A stretch of 64,000 nt of DNA from Nemertoderma westbladi (lineage: Eukaryota > Animalia > Xenacoelomorpha). Positions 1,626 through 64,000 of the stretch are shown piece by piece. The position numbers and the translations under genes are program-made. The stretch is taken from contig JAUCBJ010002989.1 of the NCBI GenBank assembly GCA_032718475.1, positions 1 through 64,000 on the forward strand, read 5' to 3'. The first letter of the stretch is position 1. Each line of letters opens with the position of its first letter. A model generated the notes under the pieces. It did not search any database and was not told the DNA's origin. It worked only from the letters and a program-made list of their open reading frames with translations.

Positions 1626-3345
1626 TACTACTACTAGGTCGAGCGAACACGGACTGTGGAAATGAGATCCTTCCCAATTCTCAATATAGTTGTCGCAATT
1701 TAGTTTCTCTCAAGTTTAGTATCCCTTTCAAGTTGGTATATATATGTTGTAGCCGGTCGTCCACGGCTACGCTTTCCTTATGTTGGTTGCCGGAAAAGTA
1801 GATCTGGTGCGAGCCCAGCAGTGCCCACTGAATCTTAATCTGCATTTACTGAGGGTGGTTGATACAGGTGGTATATAGCTTGTCTCCAGCTGATGTTTAG
1901 GGCTGCCCTTAGTAGTATTGTGTAGCAACCATCAATTCGGTGTTCAAGTGATTTCGTTAGTGTCAAGGTCTGTATAAAAGGAACACTTTCCTTCGTCAAC
2001 CTTCCTTAGTTGATTATTATCGATTTCAACATTCAACATTTCCATCAACATTAAAAGTCATGAATTCGGTCTTGGTAGCATTTATATGCAAGAAGCTGTG
2101 CATCTGCTAGCGTTTTTTAGAGAGCAGGGCGATGTCCTCCACAAAGTCGGTGTTAGTGACTGTAGTTGCCGGATATCGATATCAGCTACTCATGGGTTCT
2201 TGTAGTGTGAATCCCAGATCTTCACCCTTTGTGGCCGTCCGCCCTCATTTCGTAGGCCCCTAATCCAAGACAATTACGAATAGTAATGGAGCCAATATGT
2301 CACCTTGCAGTATGCCAGCCAGGATTGAGAAGAATTCAGTTTCTCCATCTGGGGAGAGTACCTGAGCTTCTGTGTCACAATATAACAATCCAATGCCAGC
2401 GACAATTACTTCTGGTATTACATAAGCTCTTAGGATTTCCAGCATTTTATCTCTATGGAGTCGAATGCTATCTTGAAGTCCGCAAATGTCATGTCATGCC
2501 TATTGGAGATTCTTTGACAATTCCCTCAATCAGTTTCTGTATCGCAAGTGTCTGAGCTATTGTTGATCTACTTGGTCGAAATCCGTTTTGGCTCTTACGC
2601 AGCAGTTTCTCTATGTGAGGCCTAATCCTATATAGAATCATTTTATTGTATATTTTGGCAGCTACCAGAAGCAGACATATCCCACGATAGTTTGTTGGTA
2701 TGCCGAGGTCTCCTTTCTTGGGGAGAGGCTTTAGTTGACTTTTATTCCAAATTGGCGGTGGCTTTTCCCCTTTAAGCATCCGGTTGGAAACATCCAATAA
2801 TGGTCAAGGGGTTTCATCTAATCCACTCGCTTTATGATTGGTCATGCTTTTAATGCTTGGTAGGAGTTCGGCAGGTGTGAAGTCCCCTGTTCCTATAGAT
2901 AGCGTCTTGTCATATATTTTCCTTGAAAGGCTGACCCAACACGTTCTTCAGGACTATCAGCTTTTAGCACAACTTTTCCGATCAGATAAGGGAATTTACG
3001 GTTTTCCAGGTAAGTCTTGATTGTTGCTGTATGTGAGCTGTTGTAATTTCTTCAATTTCGTCCTCTATGTACTTCCCCTGGCTGACGTTGTATACCAATT
3101 TAAGATCTTCCTTAGCTTTATCAACCTTGTTGATGTTTTAGATTGTTGATTGTTCGGTTTTCACTTTGTAGACATCTAAGGATCTTATCTCTTACAACTA
3201 CCCTCAGAGTCTTGCCAAGGCACGTACTGTTTTCGTTTGCGTTTCTGTGGAATATGCCTCTTGGCTGATTCCTTGTGGACTTTTATTATGTTCTGGTATA
3301 TAGAATCGGTAGACTGGTCTTCATCCATTGGCTGAAGGACATTTT
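1626..3345 (-). mobile_element. Degenerate, 5'-truncated RTE-clade non-LTR retrotransposon (family B)
   Basis: Frameshifted RT pieces on the minus strand: LPKKGDLGIPTNYRGICLL...SQNGFRPSRST (2489-2797) and GILQGDILAPLLFVIVLD (2260-2445). A (TAG)n tail reads tactactactagg at ~1626-1638 on +. The 5' boundary is approximate. Confidence 0.85.
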
Positions 3346-43500: not shown

Positions 43501-43624
43501 TATCTTTAACATATTATGTTTTTCCAGACGTCCAACCACCCAACCTCCAGGTGGGCCTTCTCCAATGGACTTCCCCAACAATCTCCCTCCCCCACTGATA
43601 CCCCAACGACCGCGACCCCAGTAG
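4382..43624 (+). CDS. DNM1: Classical dynamin (GTPase-stalk-PH-GED-PRD), multi-exon gene, 5' exons outside window
   Basis: Spliced exons 4382-4531, 8164-8367, 8532-8630, 8800-8960, 11604-11746, one of [14699-14840 | 26289-26424 | 27176-27311], 29340-29704, 31418-31592, 37679-37788, 38312-38447, 40955-41095, 41261-41514, 41888-42049, 43528-43624. All are AG/GT bounded, phase-compatible and give one open frame of ~777 codons. Motifs: [21 protein letters not shown] domain, GED, PxxP tail. The symbol denotes the DNM1/2/3 (shibire) orthology group. Confidence 0.96.
4639..5187. mobile_element. hAT-type MITE
   Basis: TIR cagggatggcaaaacgaaacgaaa / tttcgtttcgttatgccatcccag. 8-bp TSD ctttgtac (4631-4638) / ctttgtat (5188-5195). 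Many aaacg subterminal repeats. Confidence 0.85.
6139..6204 (-). mobile_element. Inverted, extremely 5'-truncated copy of RTE family A 3' end nested in the same element
   Basis: 6139-6193 is the reverse complement of the element's 3' end (~7958-8011) including the TAG tail. 12-bp TSD ctcagtaaacac at 6127-6138 and 6205-6216. Confidence 0.9.
6367..7977 (+). CDS. RTE-type reverse transcriptase (536 aa open frame)
   Basis: [79 protein letters not shown] motifs typical of non-LTR RTE RT; no stops. Confidence 0.93.
   Translation: MPDNFIEVKLFESVLPDIPIGDISFAEVKAAAKSIKTNRASGVDGVPPEVFKIAECLKLIYPIIVDMYRTTRVPQEMKTNKLVPVPKKGNLTLYGSFRGISLISIAAKLYNRILLNRIRDPIERLLRGNQNGFRKGRGTMEPILALRRIIEELSKKKDRHLAVIFVDFFKAFDSVSRSRMFTILSLYGIPDEIIAAIRSVYDVSTTFVSTVDGDTEPFEVLWGVLQGDTLAPFLFIIVVDYVLRMSLDHYNGDGVMITPPAGVRGRGNPAKCLTDLDFADDLGVLSESLEGAQRLFSSLEHAASSVGLFINSRKTKILTVNFESPQQVSDRMSISSKDGMLEHVDDFCYLGSWIRKSGEDLRIRKGKAWAALNRLSRICKSPRINWKLKVRLFRAVVVPVLLYGSPCWALTAEDTKSLDGTFTRMLRRVHCVKYNAHISNQTLYNIAGVSLVPPSLTLEQNRLRFAGHCFRHEDQPVQNLVLWQPHRVNKHGGQPMTFLRRILKDTGLKDADDLANVMGDRELWRCNFVDKPAQHS
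8164..8367 (+). CDS. DNM1: Dynamin exon (GTPase G3 DLPG)
   Basis: tttcag|...CAA G|gttagt; [69 protein letters not shown]; 204 bp. Confidence 0.96.
8532..8630 (+). CDS. DNM1: Dynamin exon (GTPase G4 TKLD)
   Basis: aacag|...AGA G|gtaagt; [33 protein letters not shown]; 99 bp. Confidence 0.96.
8800..8960 (+). CDS. DNM1: Dynamin exon (GTPase C-terminal part)
   Basis: ttatag|...AAC CAG|gtacgt; [53 protein letters not shown]; 161 bp. Confidence 0.96.
8961..11191 (+). repeat. 31-bp minisatellite (~72 copies) containing a consensus 5' splice site
   Basis: Unit gtaagttggacac(gggt/cgtt/agtt)ccttaacaaaccag; starts at the exon donor. Confidence 0.97.
11368..11436 (+). pseudogene. tRNA-derived relic or SINE head
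   Basis: A-box-like cacttggtagagc, anticodon-like arm ttgga-ctttgaa-ttcga, B-box ggttcaatccc; the acceptor stem does not pair. Confidence 0.45.
11604..11746 (+). CDS. DNM1: Dynamin exon (BSE helix / hinge)
   Basis: tttcag|...CTA CA|gttagt; [48 protein letters not shown]; 143 bp, ends phase 2. Confidence 0.96.
11955..12739. repeat. 18-bp minisatellite (~43 copies) with CACGTG core
   Basis: Unit acatctaaaccacgtgtt. Confidence 0.95.
12748..14668. mobile_element. Possible non-autonomous DNA transposon remnant
   Basis: Short imperfect inverted ends taaggtgggtg / cacccacccta around AT-rich non-coding sequence; no clear TSD. Confidence 0.3.
14699..14840 (+). CDS. DNM1: Dynamin stalk exon, variant A (alternative cassette)
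   Basis: ttatccag|A ATA...TTG AAG|gtaccc; [47 protein letters not shown]; 142 bp, phase 2-0, open. Confidence 0.8.
16532..17158 (-). mobile_element. Non-LTR retrotransposon fragment (RT C-terminal/thumb region; CR1/L2-like, clade uncertain)
   Basis: Minus-strand translation [29 protein letters not shown]...[24 protein letters not shown]...; contains one in-frame stop. Confidence 0.75.
18175..18500 (+). mobile_element. 5'-truncated copy of RTE family A
   Basis: High similarity to ~7667-8015, (TAG)n tail, TSD gtatttatcacaatg at 18165-18179 and 18500-18514. Confidence 0.9.
18560..23050. mobile_element. Foldback-like element with long inverted arms built from ~21-bp subrepeats
   Basis: The left arm (18560-19050) carries degenerate ccccaaaaacaattattca-type units in the opposite orientation to the right arm. 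The outer ends are imperfect inverted copies (ataataaggctaccaattaaag... vs ...cattcaattagtggcgatattat). A short unique core lies at ~19050-19250. Confidence 0.6.
19311..22923. repeat. 21-bp minisatellite (~170 copies)
   Basis: Unit gggggatgaataattgttttt with a/g variants; source of the MNNCFWG ORF artefacts. Confidence 0.97.
23335..23846. mobile_element. Non-autonomous element with ~65-bp subterminal inverted repeats and an internal (ACG)n microsatellite (Helentron/DINE-1-like or MITE)
   Basis: 23357-23421 is the near-perfect reverse complement of 23769-23833; (acg)n at ~23712-23768. Confidence 0.7.
23987..24058 (+). pseudogene. tRNA-like pseudogene or SINE head
   Basis: Cloverleaf-like: gcctccg/tggtggc acceptor, A-box tggtgtagtgg, cctga-acgttta-tcggg arm, B-box ggttcgttcc, downstream T-run. 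It lacks U33 and has stem mismatches. Confidence 0.55.
24599..24928. mobile_element. Tc1/mariner-type MITE with TA target duplication
   Basis: TIR ccaggtgttccata...ctggccagccaaaactgccagacatgcac and its inverse ending tatggaacacccgg. TA on both sides. An empty-site paralog lies at 25351-25381. Confidence 0.85.
26289..26424 (+). CDS. DNM1: Dynamin stalk exon, variant B (most canonical cassette)
   Basis: ttcgcag|A CTC...AAG AAG|gtagtt; [45 protein letters not shown]; 136 bp, phase 2-0. Confidence 0.9.
27176..27311 (+). CDS. DNM1: Dynamin stalk exon, variant C (alternative cassette)
   Basis: ggttacag|A ATG...ACA AAG|gtgaac; [45 protein letters not shown]; 136 bp, phase 2-0, open. Confidence 0.85.
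27458..28060. repeat. 20-bp minisatellite (~30 copies)
   Basis: Unit gtggtgtccgtgacacagct. Confidence 0.95.
29340..29704 (+). CDS. DNM1: Dynamin exon (stalk/middle domain)
   Basis: tttccag|TTG...GCA AA|gtaagt; ...[18 protein letters not shown]...[12 protein letters not shown]...[15 protein letters not shown]; 365 bp. Confidence 0.97.
29781..31423 (+). repeat. 30-bp minisatellite (~55 copies) containing the 3' splice site
   Basis: Unit atattattttgttttag|tgccaggcatcgc; the last unit supplies the true acceptor at 31416-31417. Confidence 0.97.
31418..31592 (+). CDS. DNM1: Dynamin exon (stalk-PH linker and PH start)
   Basis: [58 protein letters not shown]|gttagt; 175 bp. Confidence 0.93.
32357..37385. 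repeat. 39-bp (and 37-bp variant) minisatellite, ~130 copies
   Basis: Unit taaggactgctactaagtgttcgtgcgtacactgtttca; higher-order duplication with 929-bp period (32684 vs 33613). Confidence 0.97.
37679..37788 (+). CDS. DNM1: Dynamin exon (PH domain)
   Basis: attag|GAG...GGG GG|gtgagt; [36 protein letters not shown]; 110 bp. Confidence 0.95.
38312..38447 (+). CDS. DNM1: Dynamin exon (PH domain end)
   Basis: ttttag|C AAT...GCA GAT|gtacgt; [45 protein letters not shown]; donor chosen by phase compatibility. Confidence 0.9.
38452..40892. repeat. 23-bp GT-rich minisatellite (~105 copies) filling almost a whole intron
   Basis: Unit gtggtaccggtgtgggtgttact with variant subunits. Confidence 0.96.
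40955..41095 (+). CDS. DNM1: Dynamin exon (GED)
   Basis: tttacag|AGC...AAC GAT|gttagt; [47 protein letters not shown]. Confidence 0.95.
41261..41514 (+). CDS. DNM1: Dynamin exon (GED/BSE, PRD start)
   Basis: catttag|ACG...GCT AG|gtagga; [71 protein letters not shown]... Confidence 0.93.
41888..42049 (+). CDS. DNM1: Dynamin exon (proline-rich domain)
   Basis: attccag|A GCA...CCA AG|gtcagt; [54 protein letters not shown]. Confidence 0.88.
42583..43064 (+). mobile_element. 5'-truncated copy of RTE family A
   Basis: High similarity to ~7523-8015 with small indels; (TAG)n tail. Confidence 0.9.
43528..43624 (+). CDS. DNM1: Dynamin terminal coding exon (PRD)
   Basis: tttccag|A CGT...; [31 protein letters not shown] with TAG at 43622-43624. 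Confidence 0.87.
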
Positions 43625-44298
43625 ACCCAAGGACCCCCTCGGAGGGGCTGAGGAGTATCCATCCACACTAATACAGCACTGGTTTCCAGCCATCCCTTTA
43701 ATAATAATAACTCACTGTTCTAGTTAGTTTCGATGTAAACTAGTTCCCGTATTTGGGGAGTTTTGCAGTCTATTCTTTTTGTTTTGGTTTGGAGCGACTT
43801 TCGTGCTATGTTTATTGAGTCGCTATAGAAACCGTAGGCAATCCAGACCCCATTAAACATCTCCGCGTTTCCTCATCCACCAACCCCCACACATCTCCAA
43901 ATATTAATTATATTTTTCCGTTATTGCATATGTTAAGCGCGCGTCGCATATTTTTTCGCTATTATGTAATAATAGTTGAACCCGAAAAGTATTCGATGTA
44001 AATAAAGTAGCACTTCAGTATTGGGTGTGAATGTTTCCACGAACGAGCTAGGCGAGTGGGTGAAATATGAAACGAGATCCTGAAAGTGAAATACTGGTAC
44101 TTTATTTAAATCGAATATGTCGTTTTATTTTCAAGTTATAACTTTTATTAATTAAAAATCATATATTATACCCGCCCGGCTCCTTGTGTTGTATGCATCT
44201 GTGGTGAAAAACTTTCTGTTACGCCTACCTTGGCGTGACCGTAGAATACGGTATAGTCATACTGAAAGAATATTGCTACTTTATTTCACGCCGTCTGG

Positions 44299-44479: not shown

Positions 44480-45968
44480 GCCCTTCCGTGTAGGTGGACT
44501 TTTTCCGATGTTCCCTTCGCAGTATTTAGTCCAAACGGATAATTTTCACAATTATTTTATTTCCAAATTAGTATTTGAATGTTGGGCTGTAGGATACGCG
44601 CTAAAAATACAAAATACTGTATATATAATGTTATTTTATTGAAATGACATTATTTGTATAATTTAAATTATATCGCGAAACTTCGGCGAATACTAACTTT
44701 TTACCTGCTAAATTATATTAATTTTGATCTAAATACGCTTACAAATACTTAGAAACTATTATTAAACATCTCACTCTGTTTTAAATGGCGCAAAATGACC
44801 CAAACTCAAATTGTTTCATATTCGACTATTAGGCCTAATTTGCGGTGAATATGAAGTTTAGGTTCGGTCAATTTGCGCCAGTATTTGTGCGTAAAATCGC
44901 CTCAGTTATTAAAATTTCACATCATCTGAACCGGCGCTAGTCAGAATAAACTAGGTACCGTAATTTTGCTTGTTATTCGGTATAATACTGTAAACTATAT
45001 TTAATTTTGCGTGTTGCAACGATTTTTAGCGACGATTTGCGTGACATTACCGGATATTTAATTGAAAATTTTCTATAAAAAAACGTATTCTCGTAAAATA
45101 AACCTGCGTAATTCAAAGAGATTCATTTGTGTGAAATTTAAATGGATATTATTAATTTTTTTGATTCTAGACTATTTATTACATGTAATTTCAAGCCTTC
45201 CCAATGCTCATTACATAATTGAGTTCAGTTCCACATAATTATTATTATTTAAAGTTGAATTGGCCGATCTTAATTACACTTTGTGGCCGTGGATATATAT
45301 TTTGCGAATGCAGTAAAAAATACATTCCAGATATATTATGGTAGATCTATAAGTAAATACATGTAAAACCATCGAATATTATAAAGGAGATTGTGTGGGA
45401 CTAAGTATTTTACGTTTTTTTTTATTTTAATGGATTTGATTTGATCAGCCTACGGTTGTATTCACAGGGTTCTGGCAGATCCTAAATTGAATATCTTTTA
45501 AATTCCAGTTTCCTTCAATGTTAAGTATTTCATTTAAAAGTGGCATGATTTCATGACTTTTAATTGTCAGACTTCAGCGGTGCATGTTTGGGACATTGTG
45601 ACACACTATAGTAACTGCGCAATGGAAAGTCTACATTTTGTTTACATGTTTCTATAGTAATGCTTAGATTAAGATAACGTCGTCAATTTATATGTATATT
45701 ATAGTTGCCGTGTATTTTATGAATATTAAATTTGTTCTGTTTCAGTTTTACATAATATAATAATAACTTAGTATTCAAGGTGCGAAGCATTGAGCTTCCC
45801 TTAGCTATCATAATTAATGTTATTGTTACTTTATTTAATTAATAAATTGATCATCAATAGTTAATAATAATTTATAGTTTAATTTGTTTTTTTCAGATTT
45901 GTTATATCTTTATCAAATTATCACATAATAACTATGTGAGGTCATTGTTCATAAAATATCATAAAATA

Positions 45969-46052
45969 GGAGAGGCTAGTTGACTTTTAGTCCAGATTGG
46001 CGGTGGCATTCCCCCTTTCAGCATCCGGTTGCAAACATCCAATAATGGTCTG
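45969..46052 (-). mobile_element. RTE family B RT fragment forming the edge of the satellite
   Basis: ggagaggctagttgacttttagtccagattggcggtggcattccccctttcagcatccggttgcaaacatccaataatggtc aligns to 2722-2805 (MLKGEKPPPIWNKSQL vs MLKGGMPPPIWTKSQL). Confidence 0.9.
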
Positions 46053-49000
46053 TTCAGCATCCTGTTGCAAACATCCAATAATGGTCTGTTTAGCACTCCG
46101 GTTGCAAACATCCAATAATGGTCTGTTCTGCACTCCTGTTGCAAACATCCAATAATGGTCTGTTCAGCACTCCTGTTGCAAACATCCAATAATGGTCAGT
46201 TTAGCACTCCTGTTGCAAACATCCAATAATGGTCTGTTCAGCATCCGGTTGCAAACATCCAATAATGGTCTGTTTAGCACTCCTGTTGCAAACATCCAAT
46301 AATGGTCTGTTCAGCATCCGGTTGCAAACATCCAATAATGGTCTGTTCAGCATCCGGTTGCAAACATCCAATAATGGTCTGTTCAGCACTCCGGTTGCAA
46401 ACATCCAATAATGGTCTGTTCAGCACTCCGGTTGCAAACATCCAATAATGGTCTGTTCTGCACTCCTGTTGCAAACATCCAATAATGGTCTGTTCAGCAT
46501 TCCGGATGCAAACATCCAATAATGGTCTGTTCAGCATCCGGTTGCAAACATCCAATAATGGTCTGTTCAGCACTCCGGATGCAAACATCCAATAATGGTC
46601 TGTTCAGCATCCGGTTGCAAACATCCAATAATGGTCTGTTCAGCACTCCGGTTGCAAACATCCAATAATGGTCTGTTCTGCACTCCTGTTGCAAACATCC
46701 AATAATGGTCTGTTCTGCACTCCGGTTGCAAACATCCAATAATGGTCTGTTCAGCACTCCGGATGCAAACATCCAATAATGGTCTGTTCTGCACTCCTGT
46801 TGCAAACATCCAATAATGGTCTGTTCTGCACTCCTGTTGCAAACATCCAATAATGGTCTGTTCAGCATCCGGTTGCAAACATCCAATAATGGTCTGTTTA
46901 GCACTCCTGTTGCAAACATCCAATAATGGTCTGTTCAGCATCCGGTTGCAAACATCCAATAATGGTCTGTTCAGCATCCGGTTGCAAACATCCAATAATG
47001 GTCTGTTCAGCACTCCGGTTGCAAACATCCAATAATGGTCTGTTCTGCACTCCTGTTGCAAACATCCAATAATGGTCTGTTCAGCATTCCGGATGCAAAC
47101 ATCCAATAATGGTCTGTTCAGCACTCCGGATGCAAACATCCAATAATGGTCTGTTCAGCATCCGGTTGCAAACATCCAATAATGGTCTGTTCAGCATCCG
47201 GTTGCAAACATCCAATAATGGTCTGTTCAGCATCCGGTTACAAACATCCAATAATGGTCTGTCCAGCACTCCGGTTGCAAACATTCACTAATGGTCTGTT
47301 CTGCACTCCTGTTGCAAACATCCAATAATGGTCTGTTCTGCACTCCGGTTGCAAACATCCAATAATGGTCTGTTCAGCACTCCGGATGCAAACATCCAAT
47401 AATGGTCTGTTCTGCACTCCTGTTGCAAACATCCAATAATGGTCTGTTCTGCACTCCGGTTGCAAACATCCAATAATGGTCTGTTCAGCACTCCGGTTGC
47501 AAACATCCAATAATGGTCTGTTCTGCACTCCTGTTGCAAACATCCAATAATGGTCTGTTTAGCACTCCGGTTGCAAACATCCAATAATGGTCTGTTTAGC
47601 ACTCCGGTTGCAAACATCCATTAATGGTCTGTTTAGCACTCCTGTTGCAAACATCCAATAATGGTCTGTTCAGCATCCGGTTACAAACATCCAATAATGG
47701 TCTGTTCAGCACTCCGGATGCAAACATCCAATAATGGTCTGTTCTGCACTCCTGTTGCAAACATCCAATAATGGTCTGTTCTGCACTCCGGTTGCAAACA
47801 TCCAATAATGGTCTGTTCAGCACTCCGGTTGCAAACATCCAATAATGGTCTGTTCTGCACTCCTGTTGCAAACATCCAATAATGGTCTGTTTAGCACTCC
47901 GGTTGCAAACATCCAATAATGGTCTGTTCAGCACTCCGGTTGCAAACATCCAATAATGGTCTGTTCTGCACTCCTGTTGCAAACATCCAATAATGGTCTG
48001 TTTAGCACTCCGGTTGCAAACATCCAATAATGGTCTGTTTAGCACTCCGGTTGCAAACATCCAATAATGGTCTGTTCAGCACTCCGGTTGCAAACATCCA
48101 ATAATGGTCTGTTCTACACTCCTGTTGCAAACATCCAATAATGGTCTGTTTAGCACTCCGGTTGCAAACATCCAATAATGGTCTGTTCAGCACTCCGGTT
48201 GCAAACATCCAATAATGGTCTGTTCTGCACTCCTGTTGCAAACATCCAATAATGGTCTGTTTAGCACTCCGGTTGCAAACATCCAATAATGGTCTGTTCT
48301 GCACTCCGGTTGCAAACATCCAATAATGGTCTGTTCTGCACTCCTGTTGCAAACATCCAATAATGGTCTATTCAGCACTCCGGTTGCAAACATCCAATAA
48401 TGGTCTGTTTAGCACTCCGGTTGCAAACATCCAATAATGGTCTGTTTAGCAGTCCTGTTGCAAACATCCAATAATGGTCTGTTCTGCACTCCTGTTGCAA
48501 ACATCCAATAATGGTCTGTTTAGCACTCCGGTTGCAAACATCCAATAATGGTCTGTTCAGCACTCCGGTTGCAAACATCCAATAATGGTCTGTTCTGCAC
48601 TCCTGTTGCAAACATCCAATAATGGTCTGTTTAGCACTCCGGTTGCAAACATCAAATAATGGTCTGTTCAGCACTCCGGTTGCAAACATCCAATAATGGT
48701 CTGTTCTGCACTCCTGTTGCAAACATCCAATAATGGTCTGTTTAGCACTCCGGTTGCAAACATCCAATAATGGTCTGTTTAGCACTCCTGTTGCAAACAT
48801 CCAATAATGGTCTGTTCTGCACTCCTGTTGCAAACATACAATAATGGTCTGTTTAGCACTCCGGTTGCAAACATCCAATAATGGTCTGTTTAGCACTCCT
48901 GTTGCAAACATCCAATAATGGTCTGTTCTGCACTCCTGTTGCAAACATCCAATAATGGTCTGTTTAGCACTCCGGTTGCAAACATCCAATAATGGTCTGT

Positions 49001-52000
49001 TCAGCACTCCGGTTGCAAACATCCAATAATGGTCTGTTCTGCACTCCTGTTGCAAACATCCAATAATGGTCTGTTTAGCACACCGGTTGCAAACATCCAA
49101 TAATGGTCTGTTCAGCACTCCGGATGCAAACATCCAATAATGGTCTGTTCTGCACTCCTGTTGCAAACATCCAATAATGGTATGTTCTGCACTCCGGTTG
49201 CAAACATCCAATAATGGTCTGTTCAGCACTCCGGTTGCAAACATCCAATAATGGTCTGTTCAGCACTCCGGTTGCAAACATCCAATAATGGTCTGTTCTG
49301 CACTCCTATTTTCATCCGGTTACAAACATCCAATAATGGTCTGTTCAGCACTCCTGTTGCAAACATCCAATAATGGTCTGTTCAGCATTCCGGATCCAAA
49401 CATCCAATAATGGTCTGTTCAGCACTCCGGATGCAAACATCCAATAATGGTCTGTTCAGCATCCGGTTGCAAACATCCAATAATGGTCTGTTCAGCACTC
49501 CGGTTGCAAACATCCAATAATGGTCTGTTCTGCACTCCTGTTGCAAACATCCAATAATGGTCTGTTCAGCATTCCGGATGCAAACATCCAATAATGGTCT
49601 GTTCAGCACTCCGGATGCAAACATCCAATAATGGTCTGTTCAGCATCCGGTTGCAAACATCCAATAATGGTCTGTTCAGCATCCGGTTGCAAACATCCAA
49701 TAATGGTCTGTTCAGCATCCGGTTACAAACATCCAATAATGGTCTGTCCAGCACTCCGGTTGCAAACATCCAATAATGGTCTGTTTAGCACTCCGGTTGC
49801 AAACATCAAATAATGGTCTGTTTAGCACTCCTGTTGCAAACATCCAATAATGGTCTGTTCAGCATCCGGTTACAAACATCCAATAATGGTCTGTTCAGCA
49901 CTCCGGATGCAAACATCCAATAATGGTCTGTTCTGCACTCCTGTTGCAAACATCCAATAATGGTCTGTTCTGCACTCCGGTTGCAAACATCCAATAATGG
50001 TCTGTTCAGCACTCCGGTTGCAAACATCCAATAATGGTCTGTTCAGCACTCCGGTTGCAAACATCCAATAATGGTCTGTTCTGCACTCCTGTTTCAAACA
50101 TCCAATAATGGTCTGTTTAGCACTCCGGTTGCAAACATCCAATAATGGTCTGTTCAGCACTCCGGTTGCAAACATCCAATAATGGTCTGTTCTGCACTCC
50201 TGTTGCAAACATCCAATAATGGTCTGTTTTGCACTCCGGTTGCAAACATCCAATAATGGTCTGTTTAGCACTCCGGTTGCAAACATCCAATAATGGTCTG
50301 TTTAGCACTCCTGTTGCAAACATCCAATAATGGTCTGTTCTGCACTCCGGTTGCAAACTTCCAATAATGGTCTGTTCTGCACTCCTGTTGCAAACATCCA
50401 ATAATGGTCTGTTTAGCACTCCGGTTGCAAACATCCAATAATGGTCTGTTCTGCACTCCTGTTGCAAACATCCAATAATGGTCTGTTTAGCACTCCGGTT
50501 GCAAACATCCAATAATGGTCTGTTTAGCACTCCTGTTGCAAACATCCAATAATGGTCTGTTCTGCACTCCTGTTGCAAACATCCAATAATGGTCTGTTTA
50601 GCACTCCGGTTGCAAACATCCAATAATGGTCTTTTTAGCACTCCTGTTGCAAACATCCAATAATGGTCTGTTCTGCACTCCTGTTGCAAACATCCAATAA
50701 TGGTCTGTTTAGCACTCCGGTTGCAAACATCCAATAATGGTCTGTTTAGCACTCCGGTTGCAAACATCCAATAATGGTCTGTTTAGCACTCCGGTTGCAA
50801 ACATCCAATAATGGTCTGTTTAGCACTCCTGTTGCAAACATCCAATAATGGTCTGTTCTGCACTCCTGTTGCAAACATCCAATAATGGTCTGTTTAGCAC
50901 TCCGGTTGCAAACATCCAATAATGGTCTGTTCTGCACTCCTGTTGCAAACATCCAATAATGGTCTGTTTAGCACTCCGGTTGCAAACATCCAATAATGGT
51001 CTGTTTAGCACTCCGGTTGCAAACATCCAGTAATGGTCTGTTTAGCACTCCGGTTGCAAACATCCAATAATGGTCTGTTTAGCACTCCTGTTGCAAACAT
51101 CCAATAATGGTCTGTTCTGCACTCCTGTTGCAAACATCCAATAATGGTCTGTTTAGCACTCCGGTTGCAAACATCCAATAATGGTCTGTTTAGCACTCCG
51201 GTTGCAAACATCCAATAATGGTCTGTTTAGCACTCCGGTTGCAAACATCCAGTAATGGTCTGTTTAGCACTCCGGTTGCAAACATCCAATAATGGTCTGT
51301 TTAGCACTCCTGTTGCAAACATCCAATAATGGTCTGTTCAGCACTCCGGTTGCAAACATCCAATAATGGTCTGTTTAGCACTCCGGTTGCAAACATCCAA
51401 TAATGGTCTGTTCAGCACTCCGGTTGCAATTATCCACTAATGGTCTGTTCAGCACTCCGGATGCAAACATCCAATAATGGTCTATTCAGCATCCGGTTAC
51501 AAACATCCAATAATGGTCTGTTCTGCACTCCTATTTTCATCCGGTTACAAACATCCAATAATGGTCTGTTCAGCACTCCGGATGCAAACATCCAATAATG
51601 GTCTGTTCAGCACTCTTGTTGCAAACATCCAATAATGGTCTGTTCTGGATCCGGTTGCAAACATCCAATAATGGTCTGTTCTGGATCCGGTTGCAAACAT
51701 CCAATAATGGTCTGTTCAGCACTCCGGATGCAAACATTCAATAATGGTCTGTTCTGCACTCCTGTTGCAAACATCCAATAATGGTCTGTTTAGCACTCCT
51801 GTTGCAAACATCCAATAATGGTCTGTTCAGCATCCGGTTGCAAACATCCAATAATGGTCTGTTCAGCACTCCGGATGCAAACATCCAATAATGGTCTGTT
51901 CTGCACTCCGGATTCAAACATCCAATAATGGTCTGTTCTGCACTCCTGTTGTAAACATCCAATAATGGTCTGTTTAGCACTCCTGTTGCAAACATCCAAT

Positions 52001-55000
52001 AATGGTCTGTTCAGATTCCGGTTGCAAACATCCAATAATGGTCTGTTCAGCACTCCGGATGCAAACATCCAATAATGGTCTGTTCAGCACTCCGGATGCA
52101 AACATCCAATAATGGTCTGTTCAGCACTCGCGTTGCAAACATCCACTAATGGTCTGTTCTGGATCCGGTTGCAAACATCCAATAATGGTCTGTTCAGCAC
52201 TCCGGATGCAAACATCCAATAATGGTCTGTTCTGCACTCCTGTTGCAAACATCCAATAATGGTCTGTTTAGCACTCCTGTTGCAAACATCCAATAATGGT
52301 CTGTTCAGCATCCGGTTACAAACATCCAATAATGGTCTGTTCTGCACTCCTGTTGCAAACATCCAATAATGGTCTGCTTAGCACTCCTGTTGCAAACATC
52401 CAATAATGATCTGTTCTGCACTCCTGTTGCAAACATCCAATAATGGTCTGTTTAGCACTCCTGTTGCAAACATCCAATAATGGTCTGTTCAGCATCCGGT
52501 TGCAAACATCCAATAATGGTCTGTTCAGCATCCGGTTGCAAACATCCAATAATGGTCTGTTCTGCACTCCTGTTGCAAACATCCAATAATGGTCTGTTTA
52601 GCACTCCGGTTGCAAACATCCAATAATGGTCTGTTTAGCACTCCTGTTGCAAACATCCAATAATGGTCTGTTCTGCACTCCTGTTGCAAACATCCAATAA
52701 TGGTCTGTTTAGCACACCGGTTGCAAACATCCAATAATGGTCTTTTTAGCACTCCTGTTGCAAACATCCAATAATGGTCTGTTCTGCACTCCTGTTGCAA
52801 ACATCCAATAATGGTCTGTTTAGCACTCCGGTTGCAAACATCCAATAATGGTCTGTTTAGCACTCCGGTTGCAAGCATCCAATAATGGTCTGTTTAGCAC
52901 TCCGGTTGCAAACATCCAATAATGGTCTGTTTAGCACTCCTGTTGCAAACATCCAATAATGGTCTGTTCTGCACTCCTGTTGCAAACATCCAATAATGGT
53001 CTGTTTAGCACTCCGGTTGCAAACATCCAATAATGGTCTGTTCTGCACTCCTGTTGCAAACATCCAATAATGGTCTGTTTAGCACTCCGGTTGCAAACAT
53101 CCAATAATGGTCTGTTTAGCACTCCGGTTGCAAACATCCAATAATGGTCTGTTTAGCACTCCTGTTGCAAACATCCAATAATGGTCTGTTCAGCATCCGG
53201 TTGCAAACATCCAATAATGGTCTGTTCAGCACTCCGGATGCAAACATCCAATAATGGTCTGTTCTGCACTCCGGATTCAAACATCCAATAATGGTCTGTT
53301 CTGCACTCCTGTTGTAAACATCCAATAATGGTCTGTTTAGCACTCCTGTTGCAAACATCCAATAATGGTCTGTTCAGATTCCGGTTGCAAACATCCAATA
53401 ATGGTCTGTTCAGCACTCCGGATGCAAACATCCAATAATGGTCTGTTCTGCACTCCTGTTGCAAACATCCAATAATGGTCTGTTTAGCACTCCTGTTGCA
53501 AACATCCAATAATGGTCTGTTCAGCATCCGGTTACAAACATCCAATAATGGTCTGTTCTGCACTCCTGTTGCAAACATCCAATAATGGTCTACTTAGCAC
53601 TCCTGTTGCAAACATCCAATAATGGTCTGTTCTGCACTCCTGTTGCAAACATCCAATAATGGTCTGTTTAGCACTCCTGTTGCAAACATCCAATAATGGT
53701 CGGTTCAGCATCCGGTTGCAAACATCCAATAATGGTCTGTTCAGCATCCGGTTGCAAACATCCAATAATGGTATGTTCTGCACTCCTGTTGCAAACATCC
53801 AATAATGGTCTGTTTAGCACTCCGGTTGCAAACATCCAATAATGGTCTGTTTAGCACTCCTGTTGCAAACATCCAATAATGGTCTGTTCTGCACTCCTGT
53901 TGCAAACATCCAATAATGGTCTGTTTAGCACACCGGTTGCAAACATCCAATAATGGTCTTTTTAGCACTCCTGTTGCAAACATCCAATAATGGTCTGTTC
54001 TGCACTCCTGTTGCAAACATCCAATAATGGTCTGTTTAGCACTCCGGTTGCAAACATCCAATAATGGTCTGTTTAGCACTCCGGTTGCAAGCATCCAATA
54101 ATGGTCTGTTTAGCACTCCGGTTGCAAACATCCAATAATGGTCTGTTTAGCACTCCTGTTGCAAACATCCAATAATGGTCTGTTCTGCACTCCTGTTGCA
54201 AACATCCAATAATGGTCTGTTTAGCACTCCGGTTGCAAACATCCAATAATGGTCTGTTCTGCACTCCTGTTGCAAACATCCAATAATGGTCTGTTTAGCA
54301 CTCCGGTTGCAAACATCCAATAATGGTCTGTTTAGCACTCCGGTTGCAAACATCCAATAATGGTATGTTTAGCACTCCGGTTGCAAACATCCAATAATGG
54401 TCTGTTTAGCACTCCTGTTGCAAACATCCAATAATGGTCTGTTCTGCACTCCTGTTGCAAACATCCAATAATGGTCTGTTCTGCACTCCTGTTGCAAACA
54501 TCCAATAATGGTCTGCTTAGCACTCCTGTTGCAAACATCCAATAATGGTCTGTTCTGCACTCCTGTTGCAAACATCCAATAATGGTCTGTTTAGCACTCC
54601 TGTTGCAAACATCCAATAATGGTCGGTTCAGCATCCGGTTGCAAACATCCAATAATGGTCTGTTCAGCATCCGGTTGCAAACATCCAATAATGGTATGTT
54701 CTGCACTCCTGTTGCAAACATCCAATAATGGTCTGTTTAGCACTCCGGTTGCAAACATCCAATAATGGTCTGTTTAGCACTCCTGTTGCAAACATCCAAT
54801 AATGGTCTGTTCTGCACTCCTGTTGCAAACATCCAATAATGGTCTGTTTAGCACACCGGTTGCAAACATCCAATAATGGTCTTTTTAGCACTCCTGTTGC
54901 AAACATCCAATAATGGTCTGTTCTGCACTCCTGTTGCAAACATCCAATAATGGTCTGTTTAGCACTCCGGTTGCAAACATCCAATAATGGTCTGTTTAGC

Positions 55001-58000
55001 ACTCCGGTTGCAAGCATCCAATAATGGTCTGTTTAGCACTCCGGTTGCAAACATCCAATAATGGTCTGTTTAGCACTCCTGTTGCAAACATCCAATAATG
55101 GTCTGTTCTGCACTCCTGTTGCAAACATCCAATAATGGTCTGTTTAGCACTCCGGTTGCAAACATCCAATAATGGTCTGTTCTGCACTCCTGTTGCAAAC
55201 ATCCAATAATGGTCTGTTTAGCACTCCGGTTGCAAACATCCAATAATGGTCTGTTTAGCACTCCGGTTGCAAACATCCAATAATGGTCTGTTTAGCACTC
55301 CGGTTGCAAACATCCAATAATGGTCTGTTTAGCACTCCTGTTGCAAACATCCAATAATGGTCTGTTCTGCACTCCTGTTGCAAACATCCAATAATGGTCT
55401 GTTTAGCACTCCGGTTGCAAACATCCAATAATGGTCTGTTTAGCACTCCGGTTGCAAACATCCAATAATGGTCTGTTCAGCACTCCGGTTGCAAACATCC
55501 ACTAATGGTCTGTTCAGCACTCCGGATGCAAACATCCAATAATGGTCTATTCAGCATCCGGTTACAAACATCCAATAATGGTCTGTTCTGCACTCCTATT
55601 TTCATCCGGTTACAAACATCCAATAATGGTCTGTTCAGCACTCCGGATGCAAACATCCAATAATGGTCTGTTCAGCACTCTTGTTGCAAACATCCAATAA
55701 TGGTCTGTTCTGGATCCGGTTGCAAACATCCAATAATGGTCTGTTCAGCACTCCGGATGCAAACATTCAATAATGGTCTGTTCTGCACCCCTGTTGCAAA
55801 CATCCAATAATGGTCTGTTTAGCACTCCTGTTGCAAACATCCAATAATGGTCTGTTCAGCATCCGGTTGCAAACATCCAATAATGGTCTGTTCAGCACTC
55901 CGGATGCAAACATCCAATAATGGTCTGTTCTGCACTCCGGATTCAAACATCCAATAATGGTCTGTTCTGCACTCCTGTTGTAAACATCCAATAATGGTCT
56001 GTTTAGCACTCCTGTTGCAAACATCCAATAATGGTCTGTTTAGCACTCCTGTTGCAAACATCCAATAATGGTCTGTTCAGCACTCCGGATGCAAACATCC
56101 AATAATGGTCTGTTCAGCACTCCGGATGCAAACATCCAATAATGGTCTGTTCAGCACTCGCGTTGCAAACATCCACTAATGGTCTGTTCTGGATCCGGTT
56201 GCAAACATCCAATAATGGTCTGTTCAGCACTCCGGATGCAAACATCCAATAATGGTCTGTTCAGCACTCCGGATGCAAACATCCAATAATGGTCTGTTCA
56301 GCACTCGCGTTGCAAACATCCACTAATGGTCTGTTCTGGATCCGGTTGCAAACATCCAATAATGGTCTGTTCAGCACTCCGGATGCAAACATCCAATAAT
56401 GGTCTGTTCTGCACTCCTGTTGCAAACATCCAATAATGGTCTGTTTAGCACTCCTGTTGCAAACATCCAATAATGGTCTGTTCAGCATCCGGTTACAAAC
56501 ATCCAATAATGGTCTGTTCTGCACTCCTGTTGCAAACATCCAATAATGGTCTGCTTAGCACTCCTGTTGCAAACATCCAATAATGGTCTGTTCTGCACTC
56601 CTGTTGCAAACATCCAATAGTGGTCTGTTTAGCACTCCTGTTGCAAACATCCAATAATGGTCTGTTCAGCATCCGGTTGCAAACATCCAATAATGGTCTG
56701 TTCAGCATCCGGTTGCAAACATCCAATAATGGTCTGTTCTGCACTCCTGTTGCAAACATCCAATAATGGTCTGTTTAGCACTCCTGTTGCAAACATCCAA
56801 TAATGGTCTGTTCAGCATCCGGTTGCAAACATCCAATAATGGTCTGTTCAGCATCCGGTTGCAAACATCCAATAATGGTCTGTTCTGCACTCCTGTTGCA
56901 AACATCCAATAATGGTCTGTTCTGCACTCCTGTTGCAAACATCCAATAATGGTCTGTTCTGCACTCCTGTTGCAAACATCCAATAATGGTCTGTTCAGCA
57001 TCCGGTTGCAAACATCCAATAATGGTCTGTTCTGCACTCCGGTTGCAAACATCCAATAATGGTCTGTTCAGCATTCCGGATGCAAACATCCAATAATGGT
57101 CTGTTCAGCATTCCGGATGCAAACATCCAATAATGGTCTGTTCAGCATCCGGTTGCAAACATCCAATAATGGTCTGTTCAGCATCCGGTTGCAAACATCC
57201 AATAATGGTCTGTTCAGCATTCCGGATGCAAACATCCAATAATGGTCTGTTCAGCACTCCGGATGCAAACATCCAATAATGGTCTGTTCAGCATCCGGTT
57301 GCAAACATCCAATAATGGTCTGTTCAGCATCCGGTTGCAAACATCCAATAATGGTCTGTTCAGCATCCGGTTACAAACATCCAATAATGGTCTGTTCAGC
57401 ATTCCGGTTGCAAACATCCACTAATGGTCTGTTCTGGATCCGGTTGCAAACATCCAATAATGGTCTGTTCAGCATCCGGTTGCAAACATCCAATAATGGT
57501 CTGTTCAGCACTCCGGATGCAAACATCCAATAATGGTCTGTTCTGCACTCCTGTTGCAAACATCCAATAATGATCTGTTCTGCACTCCGGTTGCAAACAT
57601 CCAATAATGGTCTGTTCAGCACTCCGGTTGCAAACATCCAATAATCGTCTGTTCTGCACTCCTGTTGCAAATATCCAATAATGGTCTGTTTAGCACTCCG
57701 GTTGCAAACATCCAATAATGGTCTGTTTAGCACTCCGGTTGCAAACATCCAATAATGGTCTGTTTAGCACTCCTGTTGCAAACATCCAATAATGGTCTGT
57801 TCAGCATCCGGTTACAAACATCCAATAATGGTCTGTTCTGCACTCCTGTTGCAAACATCCAATAATGGTCTGTTTAGCACTCCTGTTGCAAACATCCAAT
57901 AATGGTCTGTTCTGCACTCCTGTTGCAAACATCCAATAATGGTCTGTTTAGCACTCCGGTTGCAAACATCCAATAATGGTCTGTTTAGCACTCCGGTTGC

Positions 58001-61000
58001 AAACATCCAATAATGGTCTGTTTAGCACTCCGGTTGCAAACATCCAATAATGGTCTGTTTAGCACTCCTGTTGCAAACATCCAATAATGGTCTGTTCTGC
58101 ACTCCTGTTGCAAACATCCAATAATGGTCTGTTTAGCACTCCGGTTGCAAACATCCAATAATGGTCTGTTTAGCACTCCGGTTGCAAACATCCAATAATG
58201 GTCTGTTCAGCACTCCGGTTGCAAACATCCACTAATGGTCTGTTCAGCACTCCGGATGCAAACATCCAATAATGGTCTATTCAGCATCCGGTTACAAACA
58301 TCCAATAATGGTCTGTTCTGCACTCCTATTTTCATCCGGTTACAAACATCCAATAATGGTCTGTTCAGCACTCCGGATGCAAACATCCAATAATGGTCTG
58401 TTCAGCACTCTTGTTGCAAACATCCAATAATGGTCTGTTCTGGATCCGGTTGCAAACATCCAATAATGGTCTGTTCAGCACTCCGGATGCAAACATTCAA
58501 TAATGGTCTGTTCTGCACCCCTGTTGCAAACATCCAATAATGGTCTGTTTAGCACTCCTGTTGCAAACATCCAATAATGGTCTGTTCAGCATCCGGTTGC
58601 AAACATCCAATAATGGTCTGTTCAGCACTCCGGATGCAAACATCCAATAATGGTCTGTTCTGCACTCCGGATTCAAACATCCAATAATGGTCTGTTCTGC
58701 ACTCCTGTTGTAAACATCCAATAATGGTCTGTTTAGCACTCCTGTTGCAAACATCCAATAATGGTCTGTTCAGATTCCGGTTGCAAACATCCAATAATGG
58801 TCTGTTCAGCACTCCGGATGCAAACATCCAATAATGGTCTGTTCAGCACTCCGGATGCAAACATCCAATAATGGTCTGTTCAGCACTCGCGTTGCAAACA
58901 TCCACTAATGGTCTGTTCTGGATCCGGTTGCAAACATCCAATAATGGTCTGTTCAGCACTCCGGATGCAAACATCCAATAATGGTCTGTTCTGCACTCCT
59001 GTTGCAAACATCCAATAATGGTCTGTTTAGCACTCCTGTTGCAAACATCCAATAATGGTCTGTTCAGCATCCGGTTACAAACATCCAATAATGGTCTGTT
59101 CTGCACTCCTGTTGCAAACATCCAATAATGGTCTGCTTAGCACTCCTGTTGCAAACATCCAATAATGGTCTGTTCTGCACTCCTGTTGCAAACATCCAAT
59201 AGTGGTCTGTTTAGCACTCCTGTTGCAAACATCCAATAATGGTCTGTTCAGCATCCGGTTGCAAACATCCAATAATGGTCTGTTCAGCATCCGGTTGCAA
59301 ACATCCAATAATGGTCTGTTCTGCACTCCTGTTGCAAACATCCAATAATGGTCTGTTTAGCACTCCTGTTGCAAACATCCAATAATGGTCTGTTCAGCAT
59401 CCGGTTGCAAACATCCAATAATGGTCTGTTCAGCATCCGGTTGCAAACATCCAATAATGGTCTGTTCTGCACTCCTGTTGCAAACATCCAATAATGGTCT
59501 GTTCTGCACTCCTGTTGCAAACATCCAATAATGGTCTGTTCTGCACTCCTGTTGCAAACATCCAATAATGGTCTGTTCAGCATCCGGTTGCAAACATCCA
59601 ATAATGGTCTGTTCTGCACTCCGGTTGCAAACATCCAATAATGGTCTGTTCAGCATTCCGGATGCAAACATCCAATAATGGTCTGTTCAGCATTCCGGAT
59701 GCAAACATCCAATAATGGTCTGTTCAGCATCCGGTTGCAAACATCCAATAATGGTCTGTTCAGCATCCGGTTGCAAACATCCAATAATGGTCTGTTCAGC
59801 ATTCCGGATGCAAACATCCAATAATGGTCTGTTCAGCACTCCGGATGCAAACATCCAATAATGGTCTGTTCAGCATCCGGTTGCAAACATCCAATAATGG
59901 TCTGTTCAGCATCCGGTTGCAAACATCCAATAATGGTCTGTTCAGCATCCGGTTACAAACATCCAATAATGGTCTGTTCAGCATTCCGGTTGCAAACATC
60001 CACTAATGGTCTGTTCTGGATCCGGTTGCAAACATCCAATAATGGTCTGTTCAGCATCCGGTTGCAAACATCCAATAATGGTCTGTTCAGCACTCCGGAT
60101 GCAAACATCCAATAATGGTCTGTTCTGCACTCCTGTTGCAAACATCCAATAATGATCTGTTCTGCACTCCGGTTGCAAACATCCAATAATGGTCTGTTCA
60201 GCACTCCGGTTGCAAACATCCAATAATCGTCTGTTCTGCACTCCTGTTGCAAATATCCAATAATGGTCTGTTTAGCACTCCGGTTGCAAACATCCAATAA
60301 TGGTCTGTTTAGCACTCCGGTTGCAAACATCCAATAATGGTCTGTTTAGCACTCCTGTTGCAAACATCCAATAATGGTCTGTTCAGCATCCGGTTACAAA
60401 CATCCAATAATGGTCTGTTCAGCACTCCGGATGCAAACATCCAATAATGGTCTGTTCAGCATCCGGTTGCAAACATCCAATAATGGTCTGTTCAGCATCC
60501 GGTTACAAACATCCAATAATGGTCTGTTCTGCACTCCTATTTTCATCCGGTTACAAACATCCAATAATGGTCTGTTCAGCATCCGGTTGCAAACATCCAA
60601 TAATGGTCTGTTCAGCACTCCGGATGCAAACATCCAATAATGGTCTGTTCAGCACTCTTGTTGCAAACATCCAATAATGGTCTGTTCTGGATCCGGTTGC
60701 AAACATCCAATAATGGTCTGTTCAGCACTCCGGATGCAAACATCCAATAATGGTCTGTTCTGCACTCCTGTTGCAAACATCCAATAATGGTCTGTTTAGC
60801 ACTCCTGTTGCAAACATCCAATAATGGTCTGTTCAGCATCCGGTTGCAAACATCCAATAATGGTCTGTTCAGCACTCCGATGCAAACATCCAATAATGGT
60901 CTGTTCTCCACTCCGGATGCAAACATCCAATAATGGTCTGTTCTGCACTCCGGATGCAAACATCCAATAATGGTCTGTTCTGCACTCCTGTTGTAAACAT

Positions 61001-64000
61001 CCAATAATGGTCTGTTTAGCACTCCTGTTGCAAACATCCAATAATGGTCTGTTCAGCATCCGGTTGCAAACATCCAATAATGGTCTGTTCAGCACTCCGG
61101 ATGCAAACATCCAATAATGGTCTGTTCAGCACTCCGGATGCAAACATCCAATAATGGTCTGTTCAGCACTCGCGTTGCAAACATCACTAATGGTCTGTTC
61201 TGGATCCGGTTGTAAACATCCAATAATGGTCTGTTCAGCACTCCGGATGCAAACATCCAATAATGGTCTGTTCTGCACTCCTGTTGCAAACATCCAATAA
61301 TGGTCTGTTTAGCACTCCTGTTGCAAACATCCAATAATGGTCTGTTCAGCATCCGGTTACAAACATCCAATAATGGTCTGTTCTGCACTCCTGTTGCAAA
61401 CATCCAATAATGGTCTGTTTAGCACTCCTGTTGCAAACATCCAATAATGGTCTGTTCTGCACTCCTGTTGCAAACATCCAATAATGGTCTGTTTAGCACT
61501 CCTGTTGCAAACATCCAATAATGGTCTGTTCAGCATCCGGTTGCAAACATCCAATAATGGTCTGTTCAGCATCCGGTTGCAAACATCCAATAATGGTCTG
61601 TTCTGCACTCCTGTTGCAAACATCCAATAATGGTCTGTTTAGCACTCCTATTGCAAACATCCAATAATGGTCTGTTCAGCATCCGGTTGCAAACATCCAA
61701 TAATGGTCTGTTCAGCATCCGGTTGCAAACATCCAATAATGGTCTGTTCTGCACTCCTGTTGCAAACATCCAATAATGGTCTGTTCTGCACTCCTGTTGC
61801 AAACATCCAATAATGGTCTGTTCTGCACTCCTGTTGCAAACATCCAATAATGGTATGTTCTGCACTCCGGTTGCAAACATCCAATAATGGTCTGTTCAGC
61901 ATCCGGTTGCAAACATCCAATAGTGGTCTGTTCAGCACTCCGGATGCAAACATCCAATAATGGTCTGTTCTGCACTCCTGTTGCAAACATCCAATAATGG
62001 TCTGTTCAGCATCCGGTTGCAAACATCTAATAATGGTCTGTTCTGCACTCCGGTTGCAAACATCCAATAATGGTCTGTTCAGCATCCGGTTGCAAACATC
62101 CAATAATGGTCTGTTCAGCATCCGGTTGCAAACATCTAATAATGGTCTGTTCTGCACTCCGGTTGCAAACATCCAATAATGGTCTGTTCAGCATCCGGTT
62201 GCAAACATCCAATAATGGTCTGTTCAGCACTCCGGATGCAAACATCCAATAATGGTCTGTTCTGCACTCCGGTTGCAAACATCCAATAATGGTCTGTTCA
62301 GCATCCGGTTGCAAACATCCAATAATGGTCTGTTCTGCACTCCTGTTGCAAACATCCAATAATAGTCTGTTCTGCACTCCTGTTGCAAACATCCAATAAT
62401 GGTCTGTTCTGCAGTCCTGTTGCAAACATCCAATAATGGTCTGTTCAGCATCCGGTTGCAAACATCCAATGATGGTCTGTTCTGCACTCCTGTTGCAAAC
62501 ATCCAATAATGGTCTGTTCTGCACTCCTGTTGCAAACATCCAATAATGGTCTGTTCTGCACTCCGCTTGCAAACATCCAATAATGGTCTGTTCTGCACTC
62601 CGGTTGCAAACATCCAATAATGGTCTGTTCAGCATCCGGTTGCAAACATCCAATAATGGTCTGTTCAGCACACCGGATGCAAACATCCAATAATGGTCTG
62701 TTCTGCACTCCTGTTGCAAACATCCAATAATGGTCTCTTCAGCATCCGGTTGCAAACATCCAATAATGGTCTGTTCTGCACTCCTGTTGCAAACATCCAA
62801 TAATGGTCTGTTCTGCACTCCTGTTGCAAACATCCAATAATGGTTTGTTCAGCACTCCGGATGCAAACATCCAATAATGGTCTGTTCTGCACTCCTGTTG
62901 CAAACATCCAATAATGGTCTGTTCAGCATTCGGTTGCAAACATCCAATAATGGTCTGTTCTGCACTCCTGTTGCAAACATCCAATAATGGTCTGTTCTGC
63001 ACTCCTGTTGCAAACATCCAATAATGGTCTGTTCAGCATCCGGTTACAAACATCCAATAATGGTCTGTTCAGCATCCGGTTACAAACATCCACTAATGGT
63101 CTGTTCAGCATCCGGTTGCAAACATCCAATAATGGTCTGTTCAGCATCCGGTTGCAAACATCCAATAATGGTCTGTTCAGCATCCGGTTGCAAACATCCA
63201 ATAATGGTCTGTTCAGCACTCCGGATGCAAACATCCAATAATGGTCTATTCAGCACTCCGGTTGCAAACATCCAATAATGGTCTGTTCAGCATCCGGTTG
63301 CAAACATCCAATAATGGTCTGTTCTGCACTCCTGTTGCAAACATCCAATAATGGTCTGTTCAGCATCCGGTTGCAAACATCCACTAATGGTCTGTTCTGC
63401 ACTCCTGTTGCAAACTTCCAATAATGGTCTGTTTAGCACTCCGGTTGCAAACATCCAATAATGGTCTGTTTAGCACTCCTGTTGCAAACATCCAATAATG
63501 GTCTGTTCTGCACTCCTGTTGCAAACATCCAATAATGGTCTGTTTAGCACTCCGGTTGCAAACATCCAATAATGGTCTGTTTAGCACTCCGGTTGCAAAC
63601 ATCCAATAATGGTCTGTTTAGCACTCCGGTTGCAAACATCCAATAATGGTCTGTTTAGCACTCCTGTTGCAAACATCCAATAATGGTCTGTTCTGCACTC
63701 CTGTTGCAAACATCCAATAATGGTCTGTTTAGCACTCCGGTTGCAAACATCCAATAATGGTCTGTTTAGCACTCCGGTTGCAAACATCCAATAATGGTCT
63801 GTTCAGCACTCCGGTTGCAAACATCCACTAATGGTCTGTTCAGCACTCCGGATGCAAACATCCAATAATGGTCTATTCAGCATCCGGTTACAAACATCCA
63901 ATAATGGTCTGTTCTGCACTCCTATTTTCATCCGGTTACAAACATCCAATAATGGTCTGTTCAGCACTCCGGATGCAAACATCCAATAATGGTCTGTTCA
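46017..64000. repeat. 36/37-bp satellite of at least 18 kb (~490 copies), RTE-derived, runs off the window end
   Basis: Unit ttcagca(c)tccggttgcaaacatccaataatggtctg; the 36-bp form translates on the minus strand as LNRPLLDVCNRM. Confidence 0.97.

Follow-up and report, generated by a model that had tools for sequence, protein, structure and literature searches.

The 64,000-nt stretch of Nemertoderma westbladi DNA analysed here (contig JAUCBJ010002989.1, positions 1 to 64,000; the window) ends in a tandem array of at least 17,984 bp, which originates from 12 codons of the reverse transcriptase (RT) of an RTE-like long interspersed element (LINE) and lies behind a dynamin gene. The array probably arose in place, by mis-pairing of two imperfect direct repeats, named R1 and R2 below, in one decayed RTE-like copy, followed by duplication and later expansion of the sequence separating them. 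The extra base that sets the 37-bp units apart from the 36-bp ones is inherited from the second of these repeats, and is not a later insertion.

The array and the reverse transcriptase sequence at its left edge

The features on which this section is based are as follows.

46017 to 64000, no strand assigned: tandem array of at least 17,984 bp with 487 units, open at the window end
45969 to 46016, minus strand: non-repeated RT remnant of 48 nt (16 codons' worth) with a 2-nt deletion, located 3' of the monomer in the RT sense
1625 to 3343, minus strand: decayed, 5'-truncated copy of the RTE-like family with stops and frameshifts, found by tblastn with the relatives P0123, P0133 and P0121
49296 to 49343, minus strand: first of six identical 48-bp units, containing 12 more nt of upstream RT
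56194 to 60420, no strand assigned: exact 1,645-bp block present twice, starting at 56194 and 58776 (offset 2,582)

Tandem Repeats Finder reported the array at 46017-64000 with a period of 37 and 487 copies, and cutting it into units gave 105 of 36 bp, 376 of 37 bp and 6 of 48 bp. At position 45968/45969 the sequence switches abruptly from AT-rich non-RT DNA to the RT remnant. The segment 45969-46050 could be aligned with 2722-2805 of the decayed copy over 84 columns with 90.5% identity (E 5e-27), and the local score was 127, compared to a maximum of 31 in 30 shuffles, while the 48-nt flank by itself scored 69. Within this alignment, the remnant and 2722-2771 share 44 matches, with 4 mismatches and a 2-nt gap. 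Translation of the array edge on the minus strand yields LNRPLLDVCNRM two times, and then LKGGMPPPIWTKSQL. The whole 36-bp unit is RT sequence and the additional bases of the 37-bp and 48-bp units match upstream RT; the array originates from RT coding sequence. These data bear out an earlier note on this DNA, which had matched monomer and left flank to the minus-strand RTE copy, had followed the array edge for about 50 bp into non-repeated RT, and had placed an array of at least 18 kb (45969-64000) about 2.4 kb past the dynamin stop. We found the stop codon TAG at 43622-43624, 2.3-2.4 kb before the remnant and the array, so that the array starts 2.4 kb from a gene. By its length, the array belongs with the long arrays of classical satellite DNA.

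Contigs from four sequencing runs (X1-X4) were compared with the window. The junction of flank, remnant and array was bridged by contigs in X1 (44600-46031) and X3 (45887-46038), and array-type junction records were present in X1 and X2, which belong to two studies, while none is among the records listed for X4. On its left side the array is flanked by 48 nt of a transposable element (TE) copy in register, whereas on the right side contigs cannot separate the locus from other family copies. An exact 20-nt array pattern was found in 0 stretches of metagenome contigs.

Inside the array, we found more than 60 unit types in a non-periodic order, and the other five 48-bp units, a class that the earlier note does not mention, start at 51521, 55586, 58316, 60527 and 63912. 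Exact matches of at least 392 bp occur at 9 offsets, and the pair of 1,645-bp blocks is a recent segmental duplication inside the array. Since these exact blocks lie at differing offsets, they indicate recent unequal exchange with no regular higher-order unit; a regular higher-order repeat was not seen in the array, the block duplications having unequal offsets. A coding role was rejected as well. The longest stop-free stretch is 295 amino acids (aa; minus strand, 48375-49259), and only 7 of its 24 units contain the RT peptide because the 37-bp units rotate the frame. The longest run of consecutive 36-bp units is 5. Most likely, the array is functionless, a neutral by-product and one among the many local arrays of this genome.

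The family from which the RT sequence stems is best described as RTE-like. Segment 2492-2803 of the decayed copy matched RVT_1 (E 2e-8), and with a 104-aa RT piece we obtained 19 relatives at 57-72% identity among 102 candidates. The relatives in the PDB were only L1 and the retrotransposon R2 (not to be confused with the direct repeat of that name). Elements of the RTE clade are not known to have a C-terminal cysteine-histidine motif, and a CCHC pattern was present in the last 250 aa of 0 of 4 relatives. In all three full-length relatives scanned (P0123, P0130 and P0133; 1010-1012 aa) a single open reading frame (ORF) combines apurinic/apyrimidinic (AP) endonuclease and RT, of which the 5'-truncated window copy shows the RT side only. 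A TAG-repeat tail at 1625-1636, immediately after the ORF end, forms a short microsatellite-like 3' tail, and no target-site duplication of at least 7 bp was detected around this copy in the ranges tried. As described in PMC13295347, the RTE clade has a single ORF with AP endonuclease and RT, and microsatellite-like tails. The features found fit RTE, with RTE and RTEX not separated by these tests.

The summed contig depth was ~10^5 along 2560-2920 versus 8-30 on unique flank in X1-X3 (two samples), which suggests that the family is very abundant, contig depth being no copy number. In X4, the family depth was near the flank depth (about 300-400) with only 10-15 records, and this neither supports nor refutes abundance. 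A depth of 125,000-251,000 at 46000-46049 in X1-X3 had suggested that this RT piece also gave rise to another, more abundant satellite. This was rejected, since comparable family depth extends over the whole of 2560-2920, apart from the deletion of the window copy. This deletion removes 10 codons at 2805/2806, directly upstream of the monomer, and because these codons are missing, the copy at 2722-2805 cannot have been the template. It is a cousin and not the parent of the array.

Two direct repeats and the unit variants

The RT of the family holds two imperfect direct repeats of ~15 bp at a distance of 36 bp. R1 covers the M-L-K codons and R2 the G-V-L-N codons, and the two are set apart by a length difference of one base and by one to two substitutions. 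In the array, the first repeat is found at the following position.

46017 to 46030, plus strand: R1, first imperfect direct repeat, start of unit 1, on the M-L-K side of the RT

Past the monomer, family contigs run on as CTCCTGTTTTCCA in all four runs. R2 appeared as a loose end behind 46059 in 21, 19, 27 and 1 contigs of X1-X4, respectively. Behind 2805, the corresponding counts were 13, 15 and 2 for X2-X4, X1 showing the segment from the other side. When the units are read in the RT frame, G-V (G-I in P0121) is present in 354 of 376 37-bp units and in all 6 48-bp units, and in only 1 of 104 36-bp units, unit 1 being left out of this count since it has no upstream neighbour. The 48-bp units read K-I-G-V-Q-N where P0121 has K-T-G-I-L-N, and tblastn with P0121 independently aligned KTGILN to a 37-bp unit. 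One X1 contig contains the 48-bp junction with the G of the family, where the window has A (loose end before 46022). A contig record with a C put in behind 46059 was not counted as array evidence, since family copies give it too.

The variation between units is concentrated in the same place. A minor allele above 20% was found at four unit columns only (3, 4, 8 and 12), all within the repeat, and the diversity per site was 0.144 in columns 1-15 and 0.019 in columns 16-37. Pairwise differences between units fell from 2.59 overall to 0.88 when the four variable columns were left out, which therefore hold about two thirds of the diversity. The rough chance that two of the four common variants match two pre-named changes is 1.4e-4. 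The G-V letters in the 37-bp and 48-bp units, together with the confinement of common variants to the repeat, show that the extra base was inherited from R2. Thus, 37-bp units do dominate (376 of 487), as had been stated before, but they are not the products of a 1-nt insertion into the 36-bp unit. The R2 letters can only come from upstream RT, so upstream RT was likely still attached when the array grew, and this supports a birth inside one copy whose far end is out of view.

We infer the following sequence of events. A family copy or fragment would have inserted 2.3 kb past the dynamin stop, and slippage or unequal exchange between R1 and R2 would have generated the first duplication. In repeated exchanges, a crossover left of the 1-nt length difference would give 36-bp units and one to the right of it 37-bp units, while an out-of-register crossover further into the upstream RT could have produced the 48-bp unit. 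Finally, kb-scale unequal exchanges would have lengthened the array. With the parent R2 taken from the 48-bp unit, the single-crossover classes are all present, with 91, 12, 25, 111 and 6 units.

Probable origin in place and its alternatives

Several observations weigh against a birth in place by these exchanges. Almost half of the units (242 of 487) are not single-crossover products by columns 4, 8 and 12 (168 A-C-G, 68 A-C-T and 6 rarer) and need secondary exchange. The T at column 4 is not found in family loose ends; either the parent copy alone had it, or it arose by mutation afterwards. The T at column 3 occurs in 0 of 105 36-bp units, though many family copies have T there in R2. The assignment to crossover classes was moreover post hoc. 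At 45900-45949, cover is lacking in X2 and X4, and for X4 the family depth is not high and no array-type records are listed. We infer R2 and upstream RT at the array locus, as the right end lies beyond 64000. On the left, the 3' 1.1 kb of the RT is missing, and 44500-45968 did not match this 3' sequence above shuffle level (scores 26 and 31). A plain 5'-truncated LINE insertion does not explain this, and either a deletion or an inverted insertion has to be assumed as well. The 3' sequence may plausibly have been deleted in place, as internal deletions are frequent in the family (18 joints, 15 of them listed). For the in-situ birth in an RTE copy proposed by the earlier note, the upstream parent letters in the 37-bp and 48-bp units are thus in favour, whereas the attached copy is only a 48-nt scrap with no 3' RT left of 45969.

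The shortness of the attached parent and the absence of 3' RT would also be expected if such slippage had created the array in a different family copy, from which a piece that included 48 nt of flank was later transferred here through gene conversion, circular DNA or repair capture. Fragments of the family often have unrelated flanks, as 5-8 contigs showed mixed loose ends before 46012-46013 in X1-X3. However, the junction of flank, remnant and array is present also in X1 and X3, the frequent internal deletions of the family make a 3' loss in place easy, and an extra event is required, so we consider such a transfer unlikely. Somewhat less likely still is that the retrotransposon itself made the first duplication at insertion, when its RT slipped or switched template from one repeat to the other. 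The insertion might then have been 5'-inverted, with its plus-orientation 3' half beyond the array. Twin-primed, 5'-inverted insertion is known from L1, and a flank joined to mid-RT and reading towards the 5' end has the geometry of the inverted half of such an insertion. Another RTE-like insertion in the window has an inverted copy of its own 3' end (6140-6193 versus 7958-8011, 100%), and in PMC3389668 it is argued that younger TEs give more repeats. Nevertheless, one RT event gives one junction and not five classes, and the eight other arrays of the window have no such parent in view, two of them being built from dynamin exon-intron borders, so that host DNA processes suffice. That the array length was inflated by mis-assembly of a shorter array is improbable to a still higher degree. 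The exact 1,645-bp block is present twice and no single read spans the array, but the many unit types, their non-periodic order and the array-type junction records from two studies speak against it, as does the high depth at 46050-46090 in X1-X3 (not in X4), which comes partly from family copies.

A different question is whether the array has a role. The last coding exon of dynamin lies as follows.

43528 to 43624, plus strand: last coding exon of dynamin, encoding the proline-rich end, with stop TAG at 43622-43624

According to the earlier note, read-through transcripts from dynamin would be antisense to the RT, and could feed PIWI-interacting RNA (piRNA) or small interfering RNA (siRNA) silencing of the family. 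Such transcripts would contain the RT motif hundreds of times. The orientation is right (dynamin plus, RT minus), the gap is only 2.3 kb, and the family seems abundant in X1-X3, hence there would be something to silence. Nonetheless, we regard this as very improbable. Between the stop and the array there are nine AATAAA/ATTAAA hexamers, a weak argument in AT-rich DNA, the target has a length of only 36-48 nt, and at 46019 and 46021 unit 1 deviates from the letters that dominate in the family (~90% of depth, X1-X3). In addition, there is no sign of a kept RT frame, with runs of 36-bp units of at most 5, and a ~1.7-kb antisense family copy is already in the presumed upstream intron of dynamin: the copy at 1625-3343 probably lies in this intron, with the first dynamin exons outside the window. 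Apart from its orientation, the proposal found no support. If it were true, several hundred antisense copies of a conserved RT motif would act against the family via the read-through of a host gene. That the array is a self-made source of small RNAs against its donor family, and that satellite birth from RT codons was selected as a defence, is equally hard to believe.

Other repeats of the window and comparison with known arrays

Besides the array at 46017-64000, the window has eight arrays (periods of 18-39 bp), which take up 36% of 1-46016. Overall, tandem repeats make up 54% of the window, and the units of the nine arrays, 18-39 bp in length, are unrelated to each other. Arrays thus form readily in this genome, which also seems rich in an RTE-like LINE, and under such conditions RT sequence would be expected to become the seed of some arrays by chance. 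Two of the other arrays are built from dynamin exon-intron borders, and the window contains further elements, as listed here.

8954 to 11191: array of 31-bp units with 67 copies of the donor-like AGGTAAGT, partly from dynamin exon sequence (8929-8941)
29779 to 31423: array of 30-bp units with 55 acceptor-like ends, made of a dynamin exon-intron border
14699 to 14840, 26289 to 26424 and 27176 to 27311: dynamin middle-domain exon (about residues 331-380), present as three diverged copies
5344 to 8020, plus strand: element of a second RTE-like family with an open RT frame of 544 aa at 6343-7977

A third array (38452-40892) begins just behind a likely donor. Exon-intron border 'mirages' have been described in amphioxus BflGb6 with 3-6 units (PMC3087553), and the border arrays found here, with 67 and 55 copies, far exceed the copy number given there. 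The dynamin of the window is 59-73% identical to bilaterian dynamins. Its three exon copies, with lengths of 142, 136 and 136 (all 1 mod 3), AG/GT borders and no stop, look like mutually exclusive exons, since from 11746 to 29340 the frame is preserved only when a single one of them is used. Two hits to the duplicated exon were present in 1 of 152 fetched dynamins. The second RTE-like family is 43% identical to the first over 90 aa. The element at 5344-8020 has a 20-bp target-site duplication at 5324 and 8021, and the exact inverted copy of its own 3' end (6140-6193 versus 7958-8011) lies just before an endonuclease-like piece. 3' fragments of this family were found at 18174-18477 and 42580-43067. 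Small terminal-inverted-repeat elements, resembling miniature inverted-repeat transposable elements (MITE-like), and a dispersed 93-bp repeat were located at 23357-23833, 24594-24933, 37400-37492 and 44205-44294, and the 93-bp repeat occurs directly after a 39-bp array and directly before a 38-bp array.

The birth of minisatellites between short direct repeats has been described before (Haber and Louis 1998; Alu case, Jurka and Gentles 2006; via PMC6947457 and PMC3389668). In these accounts, a TE unit bounded by short direct repeats is likewise duplicated, and expanded by slippage, conversion or unequal exchange. The array analysed here differs in that its repeats are imperfect and ~15 bp long, their differences persist as the main unit variants, and the seed is RT coding sequence. 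It also has at least 487 units, compared to up to 100 units for the minisatellites covered in PMC6947457. For human TE-derived repeats, PMC3389668 reports 5-20-bp flanking direct repeats in 300 of 7,276 and a mechanism assignable to only 6%; L1 ORF2 cases may be among these 7,276 repeats. Satellites related to LINE ORF2 are listed in PMC9659126, namely PROsat (Phodopus, L1), Pvc 20 (harbour seal, L1) and HinfI (chicken, CR1), which likewise are tandem repeats with sequence from the RT-bearing ORF of a retrotransposon that lacks long terminal repeats (LTRs). An origin from a coding region, considered unusual in the earlier note, is thus not without precedent. As described there, only a small region of PROsat resembles ORF2 (88%), whereas the whole unit is RT here, and HinfI takes in the 3' untranslated region (UTR), whereas the array here stems from the RTE-like clade and has the parent flank attached. 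Arrays wholly derived from retrotransposons are known from maize (CRM1TR and CRM4TR; PMC3648361), and Athila-derived arrays from Rosa canina (10.64898/2026.09.17.752431). According to these sources, they likewise come from one retrotransposon sub-sequence, with variation shaped by conversion, but unlike the array here, they derive from LTR elements and have long units (LTR/UTR or kb pieces), and they are described as centromeric. For CRM, the account in PMC3648361 states that the needed short direct repeats were not found, whereas here they were. A narrow literature search with few subscription papers, which is weak evidence, revealed no publication that we recognised as dealing with a satellite derived from an RTE RT or with length variants inherited from the seed.

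The array is not a new mechanism but an example of the known direct-repeat slippage route, with no function shown. The origin of most tandem repeats is untraceable, whereas here the units still reveal the seed, both flanking repeats and the crossover classes. This makes the array well suited for teaching and testing the direct-repeat model. As it shows, a young array can owe its main variants to the seed and need not have gained them by mutation, which is a caution against dating arrays by unit divergence.

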